From assembly GCA_963790305.1 (NCBI GenBank), contig CAWBOC010000005.1:32001-96000 (forward strand): a stretch of DNA of 64,000 bases, read 5' to 3'. This document shows positions 1 to 60,548 of the stretch, one piece after another (position 1 is the stretch's first letter; each line of letters starts with the position of its first letter). The notes beneath the pieces are model-generated. The model saw nothing but the letters and a program-made list of their open reading frames with translations, was not told where the DNA came from and did not search any database. The DNA is from an uncultured Gemmatimonadaceae bacterium. Lineage in GTDB: Bacteria; Gemmatimonadota; Gemmatimonadetes; Gemmatimonadales; Gemmatimonadaceae. Made by a program: the position numbers and the translations under genes.

Positions 1-1103
1 CGGAGCTGGCCCTCGAAGATCGTGTCGATCCCGCGACCGGTGCGCTCGACCAGGCCAATGCGCTTGAACGCGTTCGCCAGGACCGGATTCCGCGGGCGCG
101 GCGCCGTCACCAGCAGATTCTCGAGCCGCACCTCCGCCGGAAAGCCGCCTGGATTCGAGATCTCGATCTCGTTCTCGCTCCATTGCACATGGACCGCGCC
201 TAACGACGTATAGTCGCGGTGAATCAACGCGTTGTGCAGCGCTTCTCGGAAGCCCGCCGGGCTGTACCGCGGCACCCCGACGCTCACCGAGCCGACGGCC
301 AGCTCCTCCTCCTCGTTCCGGGCATCGAACCGCTCGCGAATCACCTCGGCCACGCGAATCAACGGCAGGCGATAGAACTCGTTGACCGCGATGCGCAACC
401 CGGTCATCACCTGGAACGCCACCTCGTGCGTCGGAATGAGCTGACGCACCGACTCCTCGCGCCCCACCATCAGGAGTCCAGCGATCGTTATTCCGTTTCC
501 AACGCGGAGGCCGAGCGCGCGCGCGATCTCCTCGTCAGGCAGGTTGAGGAGGGTTGCGTCGGCGCGCCCCGCATTGCGGGCAATCGTCTGACGCAGCCGC
601 TCGAGCTCCAGCGGATCGAGATCCTCCCAGCGCGCCTGCGGGACGACGAGCGCCGAGTGGTCGATGACGCCGCGGGAGGCCTCGCGGGATTGCATCTCGT
701 GCGGCAGGAAGGGGACGCACTTCCACTTCCCATGCACGTCGGTCGCCCTTCGGCGGTAGACGCCGGCCACGGTCGCCGTCACCGGCTGCTCGGGAGGAAT
801 GCTGACGACGATGACATCGCGTCCGTCGACCGTGACGACGCCGCACTCGACCGAGCAGGCGGGCGCGGTCTGATTCGCGATCAGGAGCTCGAGGCGCCGC
901 GCATCGGTATACGTCCCGTGGCGCGGTCGCGCCCCCGTTATGCGGCCGTCATCCTCGACCCCGATGAGGATGAGCCCTCCGCGCGCGTTGGCGAGGCAGC
1001 TGACGGTCTCGACGAGCGCGCCGTCGTCGAGCGCGCTGCGGAACTCGACGTCGAGCTGCTCGCCCTGGGCGAGGACGTCGCGGAGCTGGTCTGCGGTGAG
1101 CAT
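1..1103 (-). CDS. AlbA_2 (Schlafen-like) + HATPase_c_4 domain protein, putative DNA-binding regulator; truncated at left edge
   Basis: Not in ORF track (runs off edge); hand translation from ATG 1103: MLTADQLRDVLAQGEQLDVEFRS...CLANARGGLILIGVEDDG...REALHNALIHRDY...EISNPGGFP...PRNPVLANAFKRIGLVERTGRGI. Confidence 0.85.
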   Translation of the reverse strand, partial: MLTADQLRDVLAQGEQLDVEFRSALDDGALVETVSCLANARGGLILIGVEDDGRITGARPRHGTYTDARRLELLIANQTAPACSVECGVVTVDGRDVIVVSIPPEQPVTATVAGVYRRRATDVHGKWKCVPFLPHEMQSREASRGVIDHSALVVPQARWEDLDPLELERLRQTIARNAGRADATLLNLPDEEIARALGLRVGNGITIAGLLMVGREESVRQLIPTHEVAFQVMTGLRIAVNEFYRLPLIRVAEVIRERFDARNEEEELAVGSVSVGVPRYSPAGFREALHNALIHRDYTSLGAVHVQWSENEIEISNPGGFPAEVRLENLLVTAPRPRNPVLANAFKRIGLVERTGRGIDTIFEGQL

Positions 1104-3370: not shown

Positions 3371-6300
3371 TCATTGCTTCGCCGCGCGGATCCACTCCAG
3401 GATGTTGGGGTCGCGAATGTCGCGATCGCGCGCGAGCATCAGGACCTTCGTCAGCACCTCGGCGGTCTTCGGATCGTCGTCGGCAAAAGGAAGGAAGAGC
3501 CGACCACGGTGCTGCGAGTGAACAGCGACGATGGGAATCGCGGTTCCCGGCATCAGCGACACACCCGCACTCCCGAGGTGCACTGAGTAGGTGCCGAGCT
3601 CGCCGCGCACCATGGCGTGATTGGCCTTGAGCTCCACGTTGGCGAGGCCGAGCAGCTCGCACGTTTCCTTCACCAGCGTCGCGCGCATCTCCACCGTCGA
3701 CGCGGTCGCCTCGGGGTCGACACCACCTCGATGCGCGACGCTCACCACCAGGTCGAGATCGCGCATGGCTTCGCTGAACAGAAGGGGCGGGATGTCACGC
3801 AGGGCGAGCTCCTTCCAGCTCCCCTTCGGAGTGAAGACGACGTCTTCCAGCGTCAGCCCCTCGATGTCGGCCGGGGTATAGAACGCCTCCTGGAAGCCGA
3901 GTCGCACGGTCAAGCCGGCTTCGTGAAACGTGCGGCTGACGCCCTCTTCCGGGCGCGCAACCCAACCGCGTCCCCCGAGCAACGCGAGCGCCTGACGAGG
4001 ATTCACCTGATGTCCGGCGTACCGCCGCGACTGCACCGCCTCCCGTTCCGCGTCCGTCATCGGGTACAGCTCGCGGAAGACCTGCTTGAACGGCTGCACC
4101 CGCTCGGCGCGGAAGCACTCGTGCTGCCATGCGGACCAGTCACCGCGCTCGAAGAGATCCATGGGATGCGCGATACGAACTTCCTCGTCGTTACCCAGCG
4201 CGTGCGCCGCACCCGAGTGATCGCGCAACACGCGCCCACCCTCGGCGAGATAGCCGGCGACGCCATCACCCACGAACACGAGTCGGGACAACGCGGGTGC
4301 GAGGATCGGGTGATCCACCAGCTCACGCAGCTCCGGCGAACGGAAGCGGTCGCCGCGACACATCGCCTCCTCGAGCGCATCGCGAACACGCGAGCGCTGA
4401 CGCTTGAGCTCCTGCAGCCGATCCTTGAGCTCGACGACATCCGCATCCTTCTTGAGCGCTGCCGGAAGTGTCTTGAGCGCCTTCCCGTTCTTGGTCGTCG
4501 TCAGGCTCGGCACGCCGTCAGCATCGATAGAGAGAGTCAATGTGACGTCGCCCTTCACCCGCACGACCGAACCGTGCGCCAGATCGGCGACAGTCTCACG
4601 CTCCATCGCCCACTGGAGCCGTTGCGGGTCCCGGTATCCGGCGGTGCGCGCGAGGTTCGCGAGACCGATCGCGACCGCGCGGCCTTCACTCTGCTGCCGC
4701 TGGGAGCCGAACTTTCGCGCTTCGCGCTTGAATTCCTGGAGCCGAACGTAGCGCTGACGAAGGTCTTCGCGCCCCTTCTCTCCCTCGGTCAGCGGCAGGA
4801 GACCTAGCGCGCGCACCGAGTCCTGATGACGCGAGGCATCGATGCGAGAAAGGACATCGTGGCGCGTGACCAGACCCGCCATCGCCCGCGCGAAGAGCTG
4901 CGCCCGGGTGTGACCACCGCTGCTTGCGGCGTACTTCGCCGCGGTATCGAGTGCCTTCCACCGTTCGGCGCCTAACGTCTCGTAGACGGCCCGGAACCAG
5001 GCGACATCCACTGCCCCCTCGGTGAGGTCGGCGGCCGAGAGGTGCGTTCGCTCGCTCACCTCAGCGGCCCAGATCTCTTTCATCTCCGCGAGCTGCCAGG
5101 AGCGGTCGTCCTTGGTGTGCGCCTCGATCCACCACACCGCCTCTTCGAGTCCGGGCCATCCCAGCACGTGGTTCACGTGCGCAGCCCATTGGGGCGCGTA
5201 CACGGCAAGCTCCACCAGCCGCGCCTCACGAATGCGCGCCTTGCGCGCCCACTCGGCGAAGGCGTCGATCGTGTCTTCGGCGCGGGGAACGCTGCGCACC
5301 ACGGAATGGCTCAGCGTCTGCTGCCGCGACGTCGAGTCCGTCCACGATACGGTCCGCGCGAAGTGCGATTTGCCCAGTGCGGGGAGCGCTTGCGAGAGTG
5401 TGTCGAGACCGCCGGTCCACCGGAGCTGCCCGGCCAGCGCCGACGCGGCCGTCTCGCGATCGCCCCGGGTGCATTCGACCTCGACCACTCGACGCCGGCA
5501 GCGATCGACCAAGGCGAGAAGCTCCGGATGGCCAGCGATTGCTCGCGCGGGCTTTCTCGTCGAGGCCGCGAGAAGGAGCGAGGAGCGCGAGTGGCGACTT
5601 CCCCCACCGACCATGAGGTCGATGAACTCCGGCTCGCTCATCGCGCCAGCCCGATGCGCCTCGGCGACATCGTCCAGCGTCAGGCGCAGCGCGTCGAATG
5701 CGTTCGACTTCTTCTCGAAATGGCGAAGCAGGCCGTAGAGTCGCTTGGCATGCGTCGCCTGGACCGACGAGGGGAACAGGTCGCGCCACCAGCGCAGCCG
5801 ACGCAGCCACACGTCGGCGCGCTCGAGCTTTCGCTGGAACGCGGGGCGGTTCTCGCCAAAGAGGGTGAAGGCGGAGATTGCCCCGCGCTTCTGCGTGGCG
5901 ATCTCGCGATAGTCGGCTTCGCTGAGCTCGGCGAGACTGCTCTCCAGGCCGTCGAGCAGGAAGTCGACGCCGCCCTTTGGCGGATCCCAGGCGATACACC
6001 ACGCCAGCAACCCACGCAGGAAGTGCGATCCCGCGCTGTACTGGCCAATGGCAACGACCTTTTTCACTGGCGGAGATTTCCACGGTCCCGTGTCGGCGTC
6101 AGTGAGAAGAGCACGCAGAATCTCCAATCCATCAGGATCACGAAGCGACGCCGGGCGCTTGTCGAGCCACGCTCTCCACACCGTCTCGAGCGCGATCGCC
6201 TCGCGCTTCTCCGATGGCTCGAGCTTGCGAGGGCCAAAGCCCCATGCGCCGCTCTCCACGAGGAGCTTTGTCTCTCCACTTGGCGTGCGGACCTCAGTCG

Positions 6301-8326
6301 CCTGGTGCTCGACCACGAGCTCGGCCAGCAATGCGACGCTCGCCCGCGCTCCCGAGGTGTCGACCTCCACCTTCCTCGAGCGCGGTGCAGGCCAGTCGGG
6401 GAGCGCGTCGGAGTCGACGAGCCCGAGCGCATCGTCGGTCGTCGCGATCTCACGTTCTTCCCCAAGAATGGCCGCGACGTGCGCGCGCTCCTCATCGGTG
6501 AGCGTAGGATGCTCGGCGGCGTACCGTTCGATACGGGAGCGCACGTTGGCGATCGCACGGTCATTCTCCGCGGCGTCACGCAATAGCTCGAGCCCGCCGA
6601 GTCGCCTGGCATCACTCGCGTCGGCGAGAAGTCGGTCGGCCGTCTCGAGCACTGCCTTGTCGGGCAAGGTACGCAGGCGCGCGAGACAGCCATTGCGGAG
6701 GTCACCCGGCTTGCGCCCGAGGAGGTCGATCAGGCGGTCGACCTCGTCCCGCTCGAGCGGAAGCTCCTTCATCGCCTCGAATGCCGTCTTGCGAACCTCC
6801 GCCGACGCATCGCCTAACAGCTCCAGCGTCAGCGAACGCTCGGTCGCCGACAGCTTGCGCTTCTTCTTCCGCTCCGCGGGATCCTTGAAGCCCCATCGCG
6901 GAGCGATATCGGCCACGCGGCGAATGAAGGCGTCACGCTCATGGGGCTTCAGCTCCGGTACGTATGGCAACATCCGCTCAGCGGGCACGGCGGCGACGTT
7001 CGCCGCCATCGCCGACGCAATGACCGGCTTCTCCAGCTTGCGCTTCCACCAGGGCCAGACGAGCGCATCCAGCGTCTGCGACCGCTTGGGCGTGCGCTTG
7101 ATCAGCTCCTCGAGGCGGTCGAAGAGCAGCTTGCCATCGACGAGCAATGTGACGTCAACGCCAAAGAGGTCGAGTGCGCGGGCCGCGATGCGCAGATCGG
7201 GATCGGCGAGCATCGGCACGAGCGGCGGGAACGCCGACGTCCAGAGCGCCTGCACGAGAAAATGCGTCGCGACGAAGCGGATCTCGGCCGACGGCGACGA
7301 GAGGAGTGTGCTCGCCGGCGCGATCGCCGCGTCAATGTCCTCGAACGCGATGCTCCACAGGGCGAGGTACACTGTCTCCGCGTCGGACTCATCGAGCGCG
7401 GCCTTTCGTGCGGCGGAGTTATCGAGGAAGGTGAGCACTCGCTCGAGTACCGAGTCGATCTTCACCGCGCTCGCGCCATCCCACATGAAGCCGAACCAGG
7501 TATCGGCCGCGCGCACCACCGAGGAAAAGCGCGAGAGGTTCTCGTCGCGAATGAGGCGCAGCATGCGGCGGAACGCCTCGGGATGTGACTCGTCGACACT
7601 CTCGAGGATCGCCTGACGAAGGCCTTCCTGTCGCTGCGCAGCGAGCAGGAGTCGCTCGACGAACTCCCACGCCTCGGGGCGACTCGAGCTCATGAGCGCC
7701 TGCGTCACGGGGCGGCCCATCTGTCCGATTTCGTGCTCGCCCTGAGCGGAGGCGATGAGGATGTCGTAGACCTCCTGCCCGGTCTTGCCTCCCATATCAA
7801 TGGCGCCGGCGAGCAGCCAGCCGATGTCGATGGCGCCCCACCAGCTGGCGAGGTGCGCCGACCGTTCGGCGACCCATTTGATGTCGGCGTCGTATTCGCC
7901 GACGAGCGATGTCGCCGAGAGGAGCCATCGCCCGCGGACATCAGCGAGCGTCTTGGGTGACCGCGGGCTACGGAAGGGCTTCCGAGCGACGCCGCTCTGC
8001 CAGGGGCGATGGACGAGGATGCGGCAGGCCAATGTCGCGCTGGGTGCGAGCTGTGGAAGCAGCATTTCAATGACGCGCTTCCAGTCTGCGTCCGAGTAAG
8101 ACTCGAAGAGATCGCCGAGCTCTCCGCGCTTGTCGGCGATGAGCGACGGCGCCGTGTAGGACTGTGCGGAGAAGACCTCCTCGACCAGTGCGCGAAACTG
8201 GCGGGGGATGCCGCGTCCGGAGAGAGCCGAGGCGATTCTATTGAGCCCGCCGAGTCGTTGCAGGACGACTCCCGGCTTGCGTCTCGCCTCGATCTCCGCT
8301 CGTACGCGATCCTGGTCCATCGTCAT
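3371..8326 (-). CDS. DUF5724/DUF4132 domain giant protein (1651 aa)
   Basis: LLAAQRQEGLRQAILES, C-terminal LEEAM...HP...QPFKQVFRELY, FSEAMRDLDLVVSVAH, GRLFLPFADDDPKTAE motifs. Confidence 0.8.
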   Translation of the reverse strand: MTMDQDRVRAEIEARRKPGVVLQRLGGLNRIASALSGRGIPRQFRALVEEVFSAQSYTAPSLIADKRGELGDLFESYSDADWKRVIEMLLPQLAPSATLACRILVHRPWQSGVARKPFRSPRSPKTLADVRGRWLLSATSLVGEYDADIKWVAERSAHLASWWGAIDIGWLLAGAIDMGGKTGQEVYDILIASAQGEHEIGQMGRPVTQALMSSSRPEAWEFVERLLLAAQRQEGLRQAILESVDESHPEAFRRMLRLIRDENLSRFSSVVRAADTWFGFMWDGASAVKIDSVLERVLTFLDNSAARKAALDESDAETVYLALWSIAFEDIDAAIAPASTLLSSPSAEIRFVATHFLVQALWTSAFPPLVPMLADPDLRIAARALDLFGVDVTLLVDGKLLFDRLEELIKRTPKRSQTLDALVWPWWKRKLEKPVIASAMAANVAAVPAERMLPYVPELKPHERDAFIRRVADIAPRWGFKDPAERKKKRKLSATERSLTLELLGDASAEVRKTAFEAMKELPLERDEVDRLIDLLGRKPGDLRNGCLARLRTLPDKAVLETADRLLADASDARRLGGLELLRDAAENDRAIANVRSRIERYAAEHPTLTDEERAHVAAILGEEREIATTDDALGLVDSDALPDWPAPRSRKVEVDTSGARASVALLAELVVEHQATEVRTPSGETKLLVESGAWGFGPRKLEPSEKREAIALETVWRAWLDKRPASLRDPDGLEILRALLTDADTGPWKSPPVKKVVAIGQYSAGSHFLRGLLAWCIAWDPPKGGVDFLLDGLESSLAELSEADYREIATQKRGAISAFTLFGENRPAFQRKLERADVWLRRLRWWRDLFPSSVQATHAKRLYGLLRHFEKKSNAFDALRLTLDDVAEAHRAGAMSEPEFIDLMVGGGSRHSRSSLLLAASTRKPARAIAGHPELLALVDRCRRRVVEVECTRGDRETAASALAGQLRWTGGLDTLSQALPALGKSHFARTVSWTDSTSRQQTLSHSVVRSVPRAEDTIDAFAEWARKARIREARLVELAVYAPQWAAHVNHVLGWPGLEEAVWWIEAHTKDDRSWQLAEMKEIWAAEVSERTHLSAADLTEGAVDVAWFRAVYETLGAERWKALDTAAKYAASSGGHTRAQLFARAMAGLVTRHDVLSRIDASRHQDSVRALGLLPLTEGEKGREDLRQRYVRLQEFKREARKFGSQRQQSEGRAVAIGLANLARTAGYRDPQRLQWAMERETVADLAHGSVVRVKGDVTLTLSIDADGVPSLTTTKNGKALKTLPAALKKDADVVELKDRLQELKRQRSRVRDALEEAMCRGDRFRSPELRELVDHPILAPALSRLVFVGDGVAGYLAEGGRVLRDHSGAAHALGNDEEVRIAHPMDLFERGDWSAWQHECFRAERVQPFKQVFRELYPMTDAEREAVQSRRYAGHQVNPRQALALLGGRGWVARPEEGVSRTFHEAGLTVRLGFQEAFYTPADIEGLTLEDVVFTPKGSWKELALRDIPPLLFSEAMRDLDLVVSVAHRGGVDPEATASTVEMRATLVKETCELLGLANVELKANHAMVRGELGTYSVHLGSAGVSLMPGTAIPIVAVHSQHRGRLFLPFADDDPKTAEVLTKVLMLARDRDIRDPNILEWIRAAKQ

Positions 8327-8751
8327 GCCCCGGCGAGAAAGGTCAGTCGCAGGAAGACCATGCGGCTCTCGGCGTTGACGTACACTTGGCGATCGAGGTC
8401 ACGCTGCTCTTCCCCGTCGAGAATGACGAGATACAGCCCGTCCTCGAAACCCTGGAGCGCGGCGCCGACCGCAGAGTCCTCGTCGACGGTGCCAGAGGGG
8501 GCGCGACCCCCCGAGTCGATCTTGCCCTTGGTTGCACCTTCGGAGATCTCCTGATCGGAGAGGACGCGGATCAGGCGCCGTGCGCGCTCACGCTTCTCGA
8601 ACGCGCTCACCTCGGAGCGGACGACGCGCGTGATCAGCTCTCGGAGGGTGAGGGGGCCGCCGTCGGACGAATCCTGGCCAGGCGGCGTGGGGATGGACCA
8701 GCCATCGAGTGGGCGGACCTTCTTCCCGATGACGCGCGTCTCGACGAACAT
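8323..8751 (-). CDS. Small conserved protein with MoaD/ThiS (ubiquitin-like) C-terminal pattern; partner of the DUF4132 gene
   Basis: ATGA overlap with 8326; ends LVILDGEEQRDLDRQVYVNAESRMVFLRLTFLAGA. Confidence 0.7.
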   Translation of the reverse strand: MFVETRVIGKKVRPLDGWSIPTPPGQDSSDGGPLTLRELITRVVRSEVSAFEKRERARRLIRVLSDQEISEGATKGKIDSGGRAPSGTVDEDSAVGAALQGFEDGLYLVILDGEEQRDLDRQVYVNAESRMVFLRLTFLAGA

Positions 8752-8790
8752 GAGTCGAGAAGATGGAGGAGTGCGCGCGGCGCTCGCTAG

Positions 8791-8893
8791 AGAGAACGGG
8801 CGCTGGGAAAGCGCTGAGGGCGCTGGAAAAGCGCTAAGAACCCCAGCGCTTTTCCAGCGCTCCTAGCGCCATTCCAGCGCCCTCACTTTCTCT
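8791..8893. repeat. Tandem-unit palindrome, family D (GCGCTGGAAA-like units, about 10-nt period)
   Basis: gcgctgggaaagcgctgagggcgctggaaaagcgct-loop-agcgcttttccagcgctcctagcgccattccagcgc; abuts stop at 8894. Confidence 0.85.
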
Positions 8894-9814
8894 TCAGTTC
8901 CCGTTCTTGTTGCTCCCCGGCTTCGTTGTGCCCGCGTGAATCTCCGACTGCGCGACCTGCCCACCACCGGGACCCCAGCCCGTCTTGCCCACGCGGTCGG
9001 GCACTGTGATCAGGACTTCGGCCGCATTGTTGTCGTAGTTGCTCTCGGCGAACATGTGGCAGCTCCCCTTCGAATCCAGGGCGGGACAGGGCTCGCCGCG
9101 CTGCCGTGCGAACGGAGGATTGACCGTCACCCGGATCATGTACCGTCCCGGCCCGATCGGCTCCGTCTTGTCCGTAAGGAGGAAGAACTGGCCGGACAGC
9201 CACTTGAAGTACGTGTCGGAGTAGCCCACCGAGATCCCCTGGAACCCGTCGACCGTCGTCGTGCCGCAGTTGCGATACACCCACGTGCCCGGCGGCTCGT
9301 TCTCCTTGTAGGGATCGACGTCGATCATGCAGAAGCCGCGCTTGCGCGCCTGAATTGCCGGCCCGCTGATCTCGCCGGCGCCGTCGACTGGGAAGATCTC
9401 GTACGTCGCGTAGTTACGGAAATGAAAGTGCTGGTGGCAGTCGGCGAACTCATACAGCCCATCGCTGTCGCTAAAGTCCCCATCGCGATTCGGGTCGGCG
9501 TGATCGAGCGGGCTGCCGATGAAGACGTCGGCCGTGCCAATGTTGGGCGTCGCAACGGTAAAGCGCAGCGTACGGTGCGTTCCTGCCTCGAATCCCCCCT
9601 CGATCGCGGTGCAGCTCGTCGGCGCGAAGGTCTCTTCGTAGATCACCCACGAGTTGGCGAGCTTGTGCTGGTTGACGATCAGGTCCGGCATGCCGTCGAG
9701 ATCTTGCACGCGAGCCAGCGACGGCGCGGACGGCGTGCTCGCGGTACGGTCCGACGGTGAGGTACAGGTGACGACGCTCGCCGAGGCGAGCATGACCATC
9801 AGGGTTTTGCGCAT
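8894..9814 (-). CDS. Lysyl oxidase family protein, secreted
   Basis: LRFT..PNIG, CHQHFH Cu site, KRGFCMID, GISVGYSDTY. Confidence 0.88.
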   Translation of the reverse strand: MRKTLMVMLASASVVTCTSPSDRTASTPSAPSLARVQDLDGMPDLIVNQHKLANSWVIYEETFAPTSCTAIEGGFEAGTHRTLRFTVATPNIGTADVFIGSPLDHADPNRDGDFSDSDGLYEFADCHQHFHFRNYATYEIFPVDGAGEISGPAIQARKRGFCMIDVDPYKENEPPGTWVYRNCGTTTVDGFQGISVGYSDTYFKWLSGQFFLLTDKTEPIGPGRYMIRVTVNPPFARQRGEPCPALDSKGSCHMFAESNYDNNAAEVLITVPDRVGKTGWGPGGGQVAQSEIHAGTTKPGSNKNGN

Positions 9815-59012: not shown

Positions 59013-60548
59013 ATGGAGAATCATTTGCGATCGATTTTGACGATGCTCGCCCTGGCGCTCACACCACTCCTCGTGGAGGCGCAGCACCCGCACACGACGG
59101 CCAAGCTGCTCAATGGGCTCGGCGACCACCATCACGCAATCACGACGAAGAGCCCGCAGGCGCAGCGCTTCTTCGACCAGGGGCTCGCGCTCGCGTACGC
59201 CTTCAATCATCCGGAAGCGAAGCGGTCGTTCGAGGAGGCGGCGCGCCTCGACCCGTCGTGCGCCATGTGCCATTGGGGGATCGCCTTCGTGCTCGGCCCC
59301 AACATCAACGCGTCGATGGACCCGGCGGTGAACGCGGAGGCATATTCGGCATCGCGCCGAGCGCTGGCGCTGGCGCCTAACGTCACCGCTCGAGAGCGCG
59401 CCTACGTTGAAGCGCTGGCGAAGCGGTACGCCGAGCGTTCACCAGAGAACCGCGCCCCGCTCGACAGCGCGTTCGCGCGCGCGATGCGCGAGGTCGCCAC
59501 ACGCTTTCCAGCGGACGACGATGCCAGGACCATCTACGCCGAAGCGCTGATGGATTTGACGCCGTGGACGTACTGGACTCGCGATAAGCGCCCTCTTCCT
59601 GGCACGGCCGACCTCATCGCGGCGCTCGAGACCGTCAGTGCGCGGAATCCCAAGCATCCCGGCGCCTGTCATCTGTACATCCACGCCGTCGAATCGGCCT
59701 TCCCAGAACGAGCGGTGGCCTGTGCCGAGCGGCTGGCGGCGCTCATGCCGTCAGCTGGCCACATCGTGCACATGCCGGCGCACATCTACCTCCGCGTGGG
59801 GCGGTACGAGGACGCCATCCGCGCGAACGAGCACGCCGTCCACGCCGACGAGACCTACATCGCCGACCAGCGAGCCGAGAGCTTCTATACGGTCGCGTAC
59901 TATCCGCACAACTATCACTTTCTCGCGTTCGCCGCGATCATGGCTGGCCTCGACTCCCGCGCGCTCGAGGCTGCACGTGCAGCGGCGTCGAAGATTCCGC
60001 TGGACATCGCCGCCGTCGCGCCAGATCTCCAGCTTCTGGTCGCGTATCCACACGTGACGCTGGCGACGTTCGACCGCTTCGACGAAGTGCTTCGCGAGCC
60101 GCTTCCCCGGAGCGACCTCCGCGTCGCGACCGGCCTCGCATGGTTCGCGCGCGGAGTCGCGTTCGCCGCCAAACAACGGTTCGCCGACGCGAGAGCCGCC
60201 CTCGACACCGTCCGCGCGATATCAGCCGCGTTGACGACCAATCCGGGGGATCCGGTGATGAGCATCGCCGAGCGAGTGCTCGCGGCGCAGATCGCCATGC
60301 GATTGGGAAGGCCCGCCGATGCGATCGCGCCCCTCACCGAGGCGAAGGACATCGAGGACGGCTTGATGTACATGGAGCCGCCCTTCTGGCACCAACCCGT
60401 GCGCCACGTTCTGGGTGCGGCGCTCCTCGAGCTTGGCCGCCCGGCGGACGCGGAACGGGTCTATCGCGAAGACCTTGCGAGGTTTCCAAAGAACGTGTGG
60501 AGCATGCGCGGTCTCGAGCGGAGCTCCCGCGCGTCGAGGCAGAACTGA
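59013..60548 (+). CDS. Exported TPR-like protein
   Basis: AQ.FFDQGL...Y.FNH.EA, HPGA.H.YIH, H..HMP.HIY; TPR helices. Confidence 0.82.
   Translation: MENHLRSILTMLALALTPLLVEAQHPHTTAKLLNGLGDHHHAITTKSPQAQRFFDQGLALAYAFNHPEAKRSFEEAARLDPSCAMCHWGIAFVLGPNINASMDPAVNAEAYSASRRALALAPNVTARERAYVEALAKRYAERSPENRAPLDSAFARAMREVATRFPADDDARTIYAEALMDLTPWTYWTRDKRPLPGTADLIAALETVSARNPKHPGACHLYIHAVESAFPERAVACAERLAALMPSAGHIVHMPAHIYLRVGRYEDAIRANEHAVHADETYIADQRAESFYTVAYYPHNYHFLAFAAIMAGLDSRALEAARAAASKIPLDIAAVAPDLQLLVAYPHVTLATFDRFDEVLREPLPRSDLRVATGLAWFARGVAFAAKQRFADARAALDTVRAISAALTTNPGDPVMSIAERVLAAQIAMRLGRPADAIAPLTEAKDIEDGLMYMEPPFWHQPVRHVLGAALLELGRPADAERVYREDLARFPKNVWSMRGLERSSRASRQN

Follow-up and report, generated by a model that had tools for sequence, protein, structure and literature searches.

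A predicted beta-grasp protein and a giant DUF5724-DUF4132-DUF7737 protein as a probable two-gene module of bacteria

The stretch of DNA analysed here (the window) comprises 64,000 nucleotides (nt) from an uncultured Gemmatimonadaceae bacterium (GenBank assembly GCA_963790305.1, contig CAWBOC010000005.1, positions 32,001 to 96,000) and encodes a small protein with a predicted ubiquitin-like (Ubl) fold directly upstream of a giant protein which carries the domains DUF5724, DUF4132 and DUF7737. Beta-grasp proteins of this family and their DUF4132-DUF7737 partners very probably constitute a dedicated two-gene module, which is accessory, patchily distributed over at least five phyla and part of a DNA-damage regulon in one species. 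The features of the module in the window are as follows.

8323..8751, minus strand: open reading frame (ORF) of 142 amino acids (aa), the gene of the small Ubl protein, with a helical insert and the tail LAGA followed by the stop
8326..8337, minus strand: codons for the tail L139-A140-G141-A142, of which G141 is at least 90% conserved and the last residue is mostly Gly, and Ala in the clade of the window
3371..8326, minus strand: ORF of 1651 aa, the partner gene, HEAT-repeat-rich and with DUF5724, DUF4132 and DUF7737, its start overlapping the Ubl stop
4604..8074, minus strand: DUF5724 region with HEAT-repeat matches inside (residues 85-1241, E 9e-199)
3962..4486, minus strand: DUF4132 domain with invariant polar motifs (residues 1281-1455, E 3.8e-49)
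3389..3694, minus strand: DUF7737 domain (residues 1545-1646, E 1.5e-32)

Both ORFs lie at the coordinates and on the minus strand given in an initial annotation of this DNA, and the ATGA overlap described there is seen in the letters of the junction, GCATGACGATGG, where the ATG of the giant gene at 8326 and the TGA stop of the Ubl gene share ATGA. An alternative in-frame ATG of the giant gene is located at 8320, 2 nt past the Ubl stop, and either start implies tight coupling with the Ubl gene. The N-terminal strands, the TLRELI helix, the insert and the tail ending in LAGA which had been noticed in the small protein were all found again. The DUF4132 assignment of the 1651-aa protein is matched by Pfam, which adds DUF5724 and DUF7737 (bit scores against curated cut-offs of 167.5/27 for DUF4132, 663.7/25 for DUF5724 and 112.1/27 for DUF7737).

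Family, predicted fold and tail of the small protein

Searches of a library clustered at 90% returned 452 homologs of the small protein at E ≤ 1e-3, nearly all of them 139-144 aa in length, with few named entries which all belong to Gemmatimonadota; in a library clustered at 50%, of which 1.84 billion representatives were scanned, 783 representatives were found at E ≤ 1e-3 and 314 at E ≤ 1e-10. Homolog counts of this size (452 and 783) indicate that the small ORF is a real gene. Pfam, NCBIfam and PADLOC gave zero matches for the protein at E ≤ 1, the ESM Atlas only matched clusters of 'hypothetical protein', and a comparison of the Ubl profile with the sequences of PDB chains reached a best E of 0.21 and found no beta-grasp chain.

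All statements on folds made here are structure predictions of moderate confidence. The AlphaFold2 (AF2) model of the small protein, built from 73 aligned members, has a mean predicted local distance difference test score (pLDDT) of 76.7 and a predicted template modelling score of 0.68; the core strands and the helix preceding them lie at pLDDT 89-94, and 54 of the 142 residues are below 70. It starts with two N-terminal strands and a long helix (residues 36-63), followed by a helix-loop-helix insert (66-103), three further strands towards the C-terminus and a disordered tail (140-142), and thus has the beta-beta-alpha-beta-beta-beta order, with a mixed beta-sheet gripping a helix, of the beta-grasp fold. 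The insert amounts to about 40-45 residues and has a conserved glycine-rich motif of its own. Foldseek gave no match for the model at E ≤ 1e-3, and its list of weak matches has MoaD on top and is mostly made up of ubiquitin, SAMP1, Urm1 and CysO. In a second structure search, independent of Foldseek, the model was aligned to 48,161 PDB representatives, and the top 50 are, judged by title, nearly all ubiquitin, Ubl domains, MoaD, SAMP1, Urm1, CysO and DIX, each row spanning almost the whole target chain. The scores in this search were as follows.

MoaD 5mpo_B: 7.9 (root mean square deviation 3.1, 78/84 residues aligned)
MoaD 1vjk_A: 6.9
SAMP1: 6.4
ISG15: 6.3
CysO: 6.0
Urm1: 5.9

A beta-grasp fold, for which the initial annotation had proposed to look, is therefore predicted by both the AF2 model and the Foldseek-independent search. 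Of the MoaD/ThiS pattern claimed for the protein, the MoaD-like part is retained as a predicted fold, and membership of the ThiS/MoaD family by sequence is not. Since fold matches are found where sequence kinship is lacking, the small protein is, on the model, a separate beta-grasp family that is visible by fold only.

The C-terminal tail is predicted to be disordered (pLDDT <50) and is conserved. The alignment of 73 sequences has the consensus end FLRLVxLAGG, with G141 kept in at least 90%. Tail types were scored on the best 150 of the 783 representatives, and of 149 such proteins 105 end in Gly-Gly, 15 in Gly-Ala, 8 in Gly plus one other residue and 21 in some other way, the latter mostly visible fragments. 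Among 120 close homologs the end is LAGA in 114, LAGG in 5 and different in 1; as Gly-Ala thus prevails in 114/120 close homologs against 15/149 representatives, it is, as far as the sequences tell, a variant specific to the clade of the window. Distant homologs from Planctomycetota (E 1e-8 to 1e-18) have Gly-Gly followed by the stop in 8/8 cases, and Gly-Gly also ends the Deinococcus protein (LAGG) and a short-form protein of Fulvitalea. The inspection of homolog C-termini suggested at the outset hence returns a conserved tail that mostly ends in Gly-Gly, and at the level of the family the protein has the flexible tail with a free Gly-Gly end that characterises beta-grasp modifiers and carriers.

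Fusions of the Ubl to a longer protein were not found at E ≤ 1e-3 among proteins of 250-2000 aa. Three longer matches (P0263, P0241 and P0144) were considered as fusions and rejected, as they look like frameshifts or an internal-deletion chimera. P0144, a metagenome protein of 227 aa, joins approximately the first 117 Ubl residues to approximately the last 90 residues of DUF7737 and probably reflects an internal deletion or a faulty assembly, not a natural fusion.

Pairing with the giant protein and genomic surroundings

The Ubl gene is located directly upstream of an ORF of 1637-1779 aa with DUF5724, DUF4132 and DUF7737, and on the same strand, in 16/16 genome loci (10 from Gemmatimonadota, 4 from Planctomycetota and 2 from Clostridia), usually with a gap of 17 nt or less. 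Homologs occur on 7 of 72,556 plasmid records, and the four plasmid or chromid records inspected, namely chromosome II of Deinococcus radiodurans (filed as a plasmid), Bacteroides finegoldii, Chondrinema and Fulvitalea, all hold the pair (4/4). Plasmid pFA1 of Fulvitalea axinellae carries two pairs back to back (L039 2960-12162), a short one with a 128-aa Ubl ending in LVGG and an 868-aa DUF4132-DUF7737 protein, and a long one with a 157-aa Ubl ending in LAGSTY and a 1704-aa protein, so that both tail types are present on one replicon.

Co-occurrence was counted in samples of related genomes, which are not independent of each other. Among 151 genomes of the phylum of the window clear matches to DUF5724 are confined to 3, which are the genome of the window, G106 and, as a fragment at a contig end, G066; the Ubl is found in just the two of these that have a complete partner and is adjacent to it in both. 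In 31 other genomes of the family of the window neither gene was found. Among 151 Planctomycetota genomes DUF7737 is present in 13 and the Ubl in 9, and the 7 genomes that have both genes always have them adjacent. Six of these seven Planctomycetota partners are short forms of 813-965 aa which lack nearly all of DUF5724, so that this region is dispensable for pairing; the short-form copy in G174 is split across two ORFs. On the chromosome of Escherichia coli K-12 the small-protein profile found nothing at E ≤ 1. Taken together, the Planctomycetota short forms and E. coli YehI, which is without both DUF7737 and a Ubl, tie the Ubl to DUF7737, and judged by gene content the Ubl follows the DUF4132-DUF7737 module and neither DUF4132 alone nor the HEAT-repeat body. 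Adjacency, the basis on which a two-gene unit had been proposed, thereby proves consistent in the 16/16 loci, the 4/4 plasmid or chromid records and 7/9 of the Planctomycetota genomes with a Ubl.

An alignment of 14 full-length partners from five phyla, which are 28-69% identical to the giant protein of the window, has no invariant cysteine and none conserved to at least 90% at any position, an observation that excludes a thioester mechanism like that of E1, E2 or HECT enzymes. Conservation is concentrated in approximately the last 600 residues, and many His, Asp, Glu, Ser and Arg residues in loops of the last 400 are invariant across the five phyla, which looks like a catalytic or ligand-binding site. 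The AF2 model of residues 1251-1651 (pLDDT 84.1) has three parts, of which the first is a beta-sandwich followed by a long helix and the last, DUF7737, consists of a helix, a beta-meander, a conserved loop of low confidence and two helices. DUF7737 was considered as a candidate E2/UEV-like domain and downgraded, because frataxin-like and Mediator folds score equally and a conserved cysteine is missing. UBC, UEV and RWD domains were not matched by DUF7737 in sequence at E ≤ 10, and 16 DUF7737 segments only matched DUF7737 itself and single chance families in Pfam at the same threshold. PDB chain sequences yielded nothing significant for the C-terminal profile, the DUF7737 profile or the giant protein as a whole, DUF7737 had no usable match in the ESM Atlas, and PADLOC-DB 2.0 returned 0 families at E ≤ 1 for either the Ubl or the giant.

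The surroundings of the pair were surveyed through their longest ORFs, chosen not to overlap and to reach 90-100 aa or more, and smaller genes would be missed. E1, E2 or JAB domains were found neither in the 11 neighbouring ORFs of the window, in agreement with the initial annotation, nor in 77 flanking ORFs at 15 loci, nor in 19 flanking ORFs around the short-form and Fulvitalea pairs; the adjacent E1, E2 and deubiquitinase genes that make up canonical conjugation operons are hence missing from these surroundings. The genome of the window has a single ThiF-family protein, a fusion of ThiF and rhodanese that is encoded on another contig and beside no Ubl, together with one ordinary ThiS-family gene and no Prok-JAB match above the cut-off. 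The genes flanking the pairs are mostly housekeeping genes and do not form defence islands, while a minority has a repair or redox flavour: a WGR-domain DNA ligase, ATP-dependent, is encoded directly downstream of the pair in a Gemmataceae locus (L014, 12883-14208), a place that a repair gene also takes in the unrelated genome of D. radiodurans, a Y-family polymerase gene is found near the pair in L016, DinB-family genes are found in three related loci (L004, L006 and L008), and thioredoxin-fold genes are located near the pairs of Chondrinema and Fulvitalea. When the regions upstream of 17 Ubl genes were searched by regular expression for palindromes resembling an SOS box, a single match (L007), which is unconvincing, came up in addition to the known radiation/desiccation response motif (RDRM) of D. 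radiodurans. A link to the molybdenum cofactor was considered in view of the name MolR, of MoaC/MoeA near L012 and of modA near the Deinococcus pair; it concerns two loci only and was treated as coincidence. The Ubl homolog of the Planctomycetota genome G192 (L033 4024-6271, G192:C94) ends in LMGG and adjoins a Cas12f/TnpB-like gene, with no DUF4132 gene in the 6.5 kb covered there.

Two further features lie directly upstream of the module in the window.

8795..8890, minus strand: long GC-rich imperfect hairpin of approximately 80-95 nt with four GCGCTGGAA(A)AGCGCT-like units
8894-9814, minus strand: lysyl-oxidase-like ORF of 306 aa (PF01186, E 8.4e-12), bacterial, directly upstream of the module

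The hairpin separates the lysyl-oxidase-like gene from the start of the Ubl gene. When folded, the 144 nt at 8752-8895, which include it, have a minimum free energy of -83.6 kcal/mol (z -6.16), and 0 of 200 shuffled sequences are as stable. Its 17-nt unit has five matches in the window, of which four are in the hairpin and one, with 3 mismatches, is at 59411, and the hairpin 8795-8890 is not followed by a U-tract. It may terminate transcription, insulate the neighbouring genes or have a regulatory function, and is a candidate part of the module. At the edge of the window an ORF that is cut short (3-1103, minus strand) encodes Schlafen AlbA_2 and HATPase_c_4 ('RecG C-terminal') domains.

The Deinococcus counterpart and possible modes of action

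The functional data on the pair come from its counterpart in D. radiodurans alone, DRA0165-DRA0166, and link it to DNA damage and oxidative stress. DRA0165 is a 134-aa protein (small-protein profile E 8.5e-41; L022 8001-8405, corresponding to NZ_OV024759.1 43323-43727) whose gene is located 2 nt upstream of that of a 1626-aa DUF5724-DUF4132-DUF7737 protein. TrxC and YeeE/YedE genes lie upstream of this pair, an endonuclease dU gene directly downstream (L022 13351-13932) and modA nearby. DRA0165 is listed as 'putatively in operon with drA0166', with an RDRM at -83 (Table 2, PMC8533742), and the published 20-nt RDRM string is found upstream of the re-annotated start of the 134-aa protein. Induction of DRA0165 depends on DdrO, and induction of the DRA0166 protein by mitomycin C requires IrrE (PMC8533742).

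The same gene has been studied as that of a small peptide, SEP068184, which is upregulated after gamma irradiation and by H2O2; the deletion mutant survives H2O2 better than the wild type and the complemented strain worse, 157 co-immunoprecipitated proteins are common to baits tagged at the N- and the C-terminus, and the thioredoxin DR_A0164 bound SEP068184 in a pull-down (PMC9650054). The sequence table of that study lists the 83-aa Q9RYY8 as SEP068184. DR_A0165 has 83 aa in UniProt (Q9RYY8) and 134 aa in RefSeq (WP_227086044.1), and Q9RYY8 lacks the first 51 of the 134 residues, which comprise the two N-terminal strands together with the greater part of the main helix. On the predicted fold the 83-aa bait may have been unfolded, which would fit the chaperones among its interactors. 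SEP068184 is described in PMC9650054 as confined to Deinococcus and devoid of an RDRM; the former is contradicted by the homolog searches reported here and the latter by PMC8533742. One sentence in the Discussion of PMC9650054 mentions a structural similarity to molybdopterin (MPT) synthase (MoaD plus MoaE), and in the open-access literature and bioRxiv this sentence is the only hint of Ubl kinship. The account in PMC9650054 contains no Gly-Gly tail and no functional link to DRA0166, and does not otherwise treat the peptide as ubiquitin-like. The ubiquitin-like nature of DRA0165 went unrecognised in the published operon work, and two published Deinococcus data sets can be reinterpreted accordingly, one on an operon of the DdrO regulon that was described there as having no known function and the other on a 'Deinococcus-specific small peptide' that is missing its first 51 residues.

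A mechanism in which the tail is activated in trans and used in a polar pocket of DUF4132-DUF7737 is put forward tentatively and is rather less than an even bet. The two genes would form a co-translated stress-response module, in which the small protein would be a beta-grasp protein of the MoaD/Urm1 class with the flexible glycine tail as its working end, and the conserved C-terminal DUF4132-DUF7737 module of the giant would be its obligate partner. The single stand-alone ThiF-rhodanese E1 of the genome would activate the tail in trans as an adenylate or thiocarboxylate, and the activated tail would then act in the pocket that the invariant polar residues of DUF4132-DUF7737 form, as the tail of MoaD does in MoaE, while the HEAT-repeat body would serve for targeting or scaffolding. 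Binding of the Ubl to the giant, activation of the tail and any substrate are inferred here. This proposal draws on the Gly-Gly kept in very distant members, on the MoaD-class proteins being the closest folds, on the absence of a local enzyme gene and on the redox links in Deinococcus.

Several observations weigh against it. The small protein has no match to ThiS/MoaD (Pfam PF02597) at E ≤ 1, and hhalign of the Ubl profile against 30 ThiS-family sequences of the same phylum gives a probability of 1.4%. The protein of the window ends in Gly-Ala, with the penultimate Gly kept and without a free Gly-Gly, and three long-form proteins of Bacteroidota have three extra residues past the conserved Gly, the last being Trp or Tyr. 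A processing protease for these extended tails is not evident, which implies that a strict free Gly-Gly carboxylate is not universal. ThiF-family genes are present in 12/14 control genomes, so an E1 in trans is permissive only. Complete short-form DUF7737 proteins in G172 and G291 have no Ubl beside them, and conversely the Ubl homologs in G192 and G248 have no DUF4132 gene nearby. DR_A0166 has 0 occurrences in the co-immunoprecipitation file of PMC9650054, a weak point as the bait was truncated.

Another explanation, possible although somewhat less probable than activation in trans, is that the small protein is a stoichiometric, non-covalent regulatory or adaptor subunit, the tail of which plugs the pocket of DUF4132-DUF7737 without any activation chemistry. 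Tight translational coupling and co-occurrence would be expected of such a subunit, as would the missing local E1, E2 and JAB genes, and its tail could well tolerate a terminal Ala or the aromatic-ended extension of three residues in Bacteroidota. An exact terminal Gly-Gly is unusual for beta-grasp domains that act by binding alone. The exact C-terminal Gly-Gly in 8/8 very distant members and the predicted disorder of the tail therefore speak against a mere subunit, as does, weakly, the lack of Ubl-giant fusions, which would be harmless to it.

It is unlikely that the cysteine-free DUF4132-DUF7737 module is itself a self-contained Ubl-activating and ligating enzyme, which would transfer the adenylated tail directly to an amine, as PafA does with Pup. 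After genotoxic or oxidative stress it would join the Ubl to proteins or apply it to damaged nucleic acid. The Gly-Gly tail of the family would fit such an enzyme, the dense invariant polar residues suggest catalysis, other enzyme genes are not conserved in the neighbourhood and the Deinococcus pair is damage-induced. Set against this, the sequence searches at E ≤ 10 offer no UBC, UEV or RWD match, a nucleotide-binding motif was not recognised in the module, and the 157 interactors shared by the N- and C-tagged baits are unlike what conjugation through a free C-terminus would give (PMC9650054). If true, this would amount to an unseen bacterial Ubl pathway in at least five phyla which is unrelated to E1/E2/E3 or Pup/PafA.

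The initial annotation had also suggested a conflict or anti-phage role, which fares poorly here, given the lack of PADLOC matches and the housekeeping flanks. That the pair is an accessory conflict, anti-phage or abortive system triggered by DNA damage, a reading which can overlap with the others, is accordingly held to be improbable. Its sporadic spread (a full-length partner in 2/151 genomes of its own phylum plus one fragment, DUF7737 in 13/151 Planctomycetota) and its occurrence on megaplasmids and chromids would suit such a system, and the D. radiodurans deletion mutant is more resistant to H2O2, as if the module were costly (PMC9650054). DdrO/IrrE-like regulators have moreover been described to switch on CBASS defence after DNA damage (preprint 10.1101/2022.04.27.489752), which also counts in its favour. 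PADLOC is nonetheless silent on both proteins, the flanks are not defence islands and a toxin-like effector domain was not recognised in the pair. Lastly, it is very improbable that the small protein has some other fold and looks ubiquitin-like only because its model is of moderate confidence: the overall pLDDT of 76.7, the 54/142 residues below 70, the lack of a Foldseek match at E ≤ 1e-3 and of any known beta-grasp family in the sequence profiles would allow it, but the top 50 of the Foldseek-independent search are almost uniformly beta-grasp with near-whole coverage of the targets, and the core strands and the preceding helix are predicted at pLDDT 89-94.

Comparison with known systems

Searches of the open-access literature and bioRxiv found no publication linking DUF4132, DUF5724 or DUF7737 to a ubiquitin-like protein. 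Bacterial Ubl proteins have been described in two settings, first as sulfur carriers and later in defence operons of the E1-E2-JAB type. MoaD-MoaE, ThiS-ThiG and CysO-CysM are the sulfur-carrier pairs; the small protein differs from these carriers in having no ThiS/MoaD sequence similarity, an insert of approximately 40-45 residues and a terminal residue that varies within its family, and its partner is a giant of another kind and not MoaE, ThiG or CysM. Urm1, the archaeal SAMPs and TtuB act both as sulfur carriers and as protein modifiers (PMC9574740). Unlike the family described here, they are not known to have a dedicated giant partner.

The Bil, Bub and CBASS Cap2/Cap3 operons combine E1 and E2 genes with that of a deubiquitinase (JAB or another), their machinery having catalytic cysteines, and the systems compared include PDB entry 8tyz, titled 'bacterial E1-E2-Ubl complex'. 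The likeness to these operons consists in a bacterial beta-grasp protein with a glycine C-terminus and a dedicated machine, whereas the DUF7737 pair lacks flanking E1, E2 and JAB genes, a conserved cysteine in the partner and a PADLOC match. The DUF4132 proteins of E. coli are YehI and the MolR/YehF-YehH remnants, which are found beside WGR, MoxR, VWA and SWIM genes; YehI shares DUF4132 with the giant (residues 954-1138, E 2.1e-47) and has neither DUF7737 nor DUF5724. Of the pairs of this family only that of Deinococcus has been studied experimentally, and its small protein ends in LAGG where that of the window ends in Gly-Ala.

The small-protein family thus fits neither the sulfur carriers nor the E1-E2-JAB defence operons. 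With 783 representative clusters it is large, it carries no annotation and has kept its free glycine tail, and its only constant companion is a three-DUF giant that has no catalytic cysteine; through this pairing the proteins containing DUF4132 and DUF7737 gain a first mechanistic handle. A glycine-tailed beta-grasp protein is in itself of a known kind, but this family had escaped notice, and no known enzyme that handles a Ubl resembles its partner.

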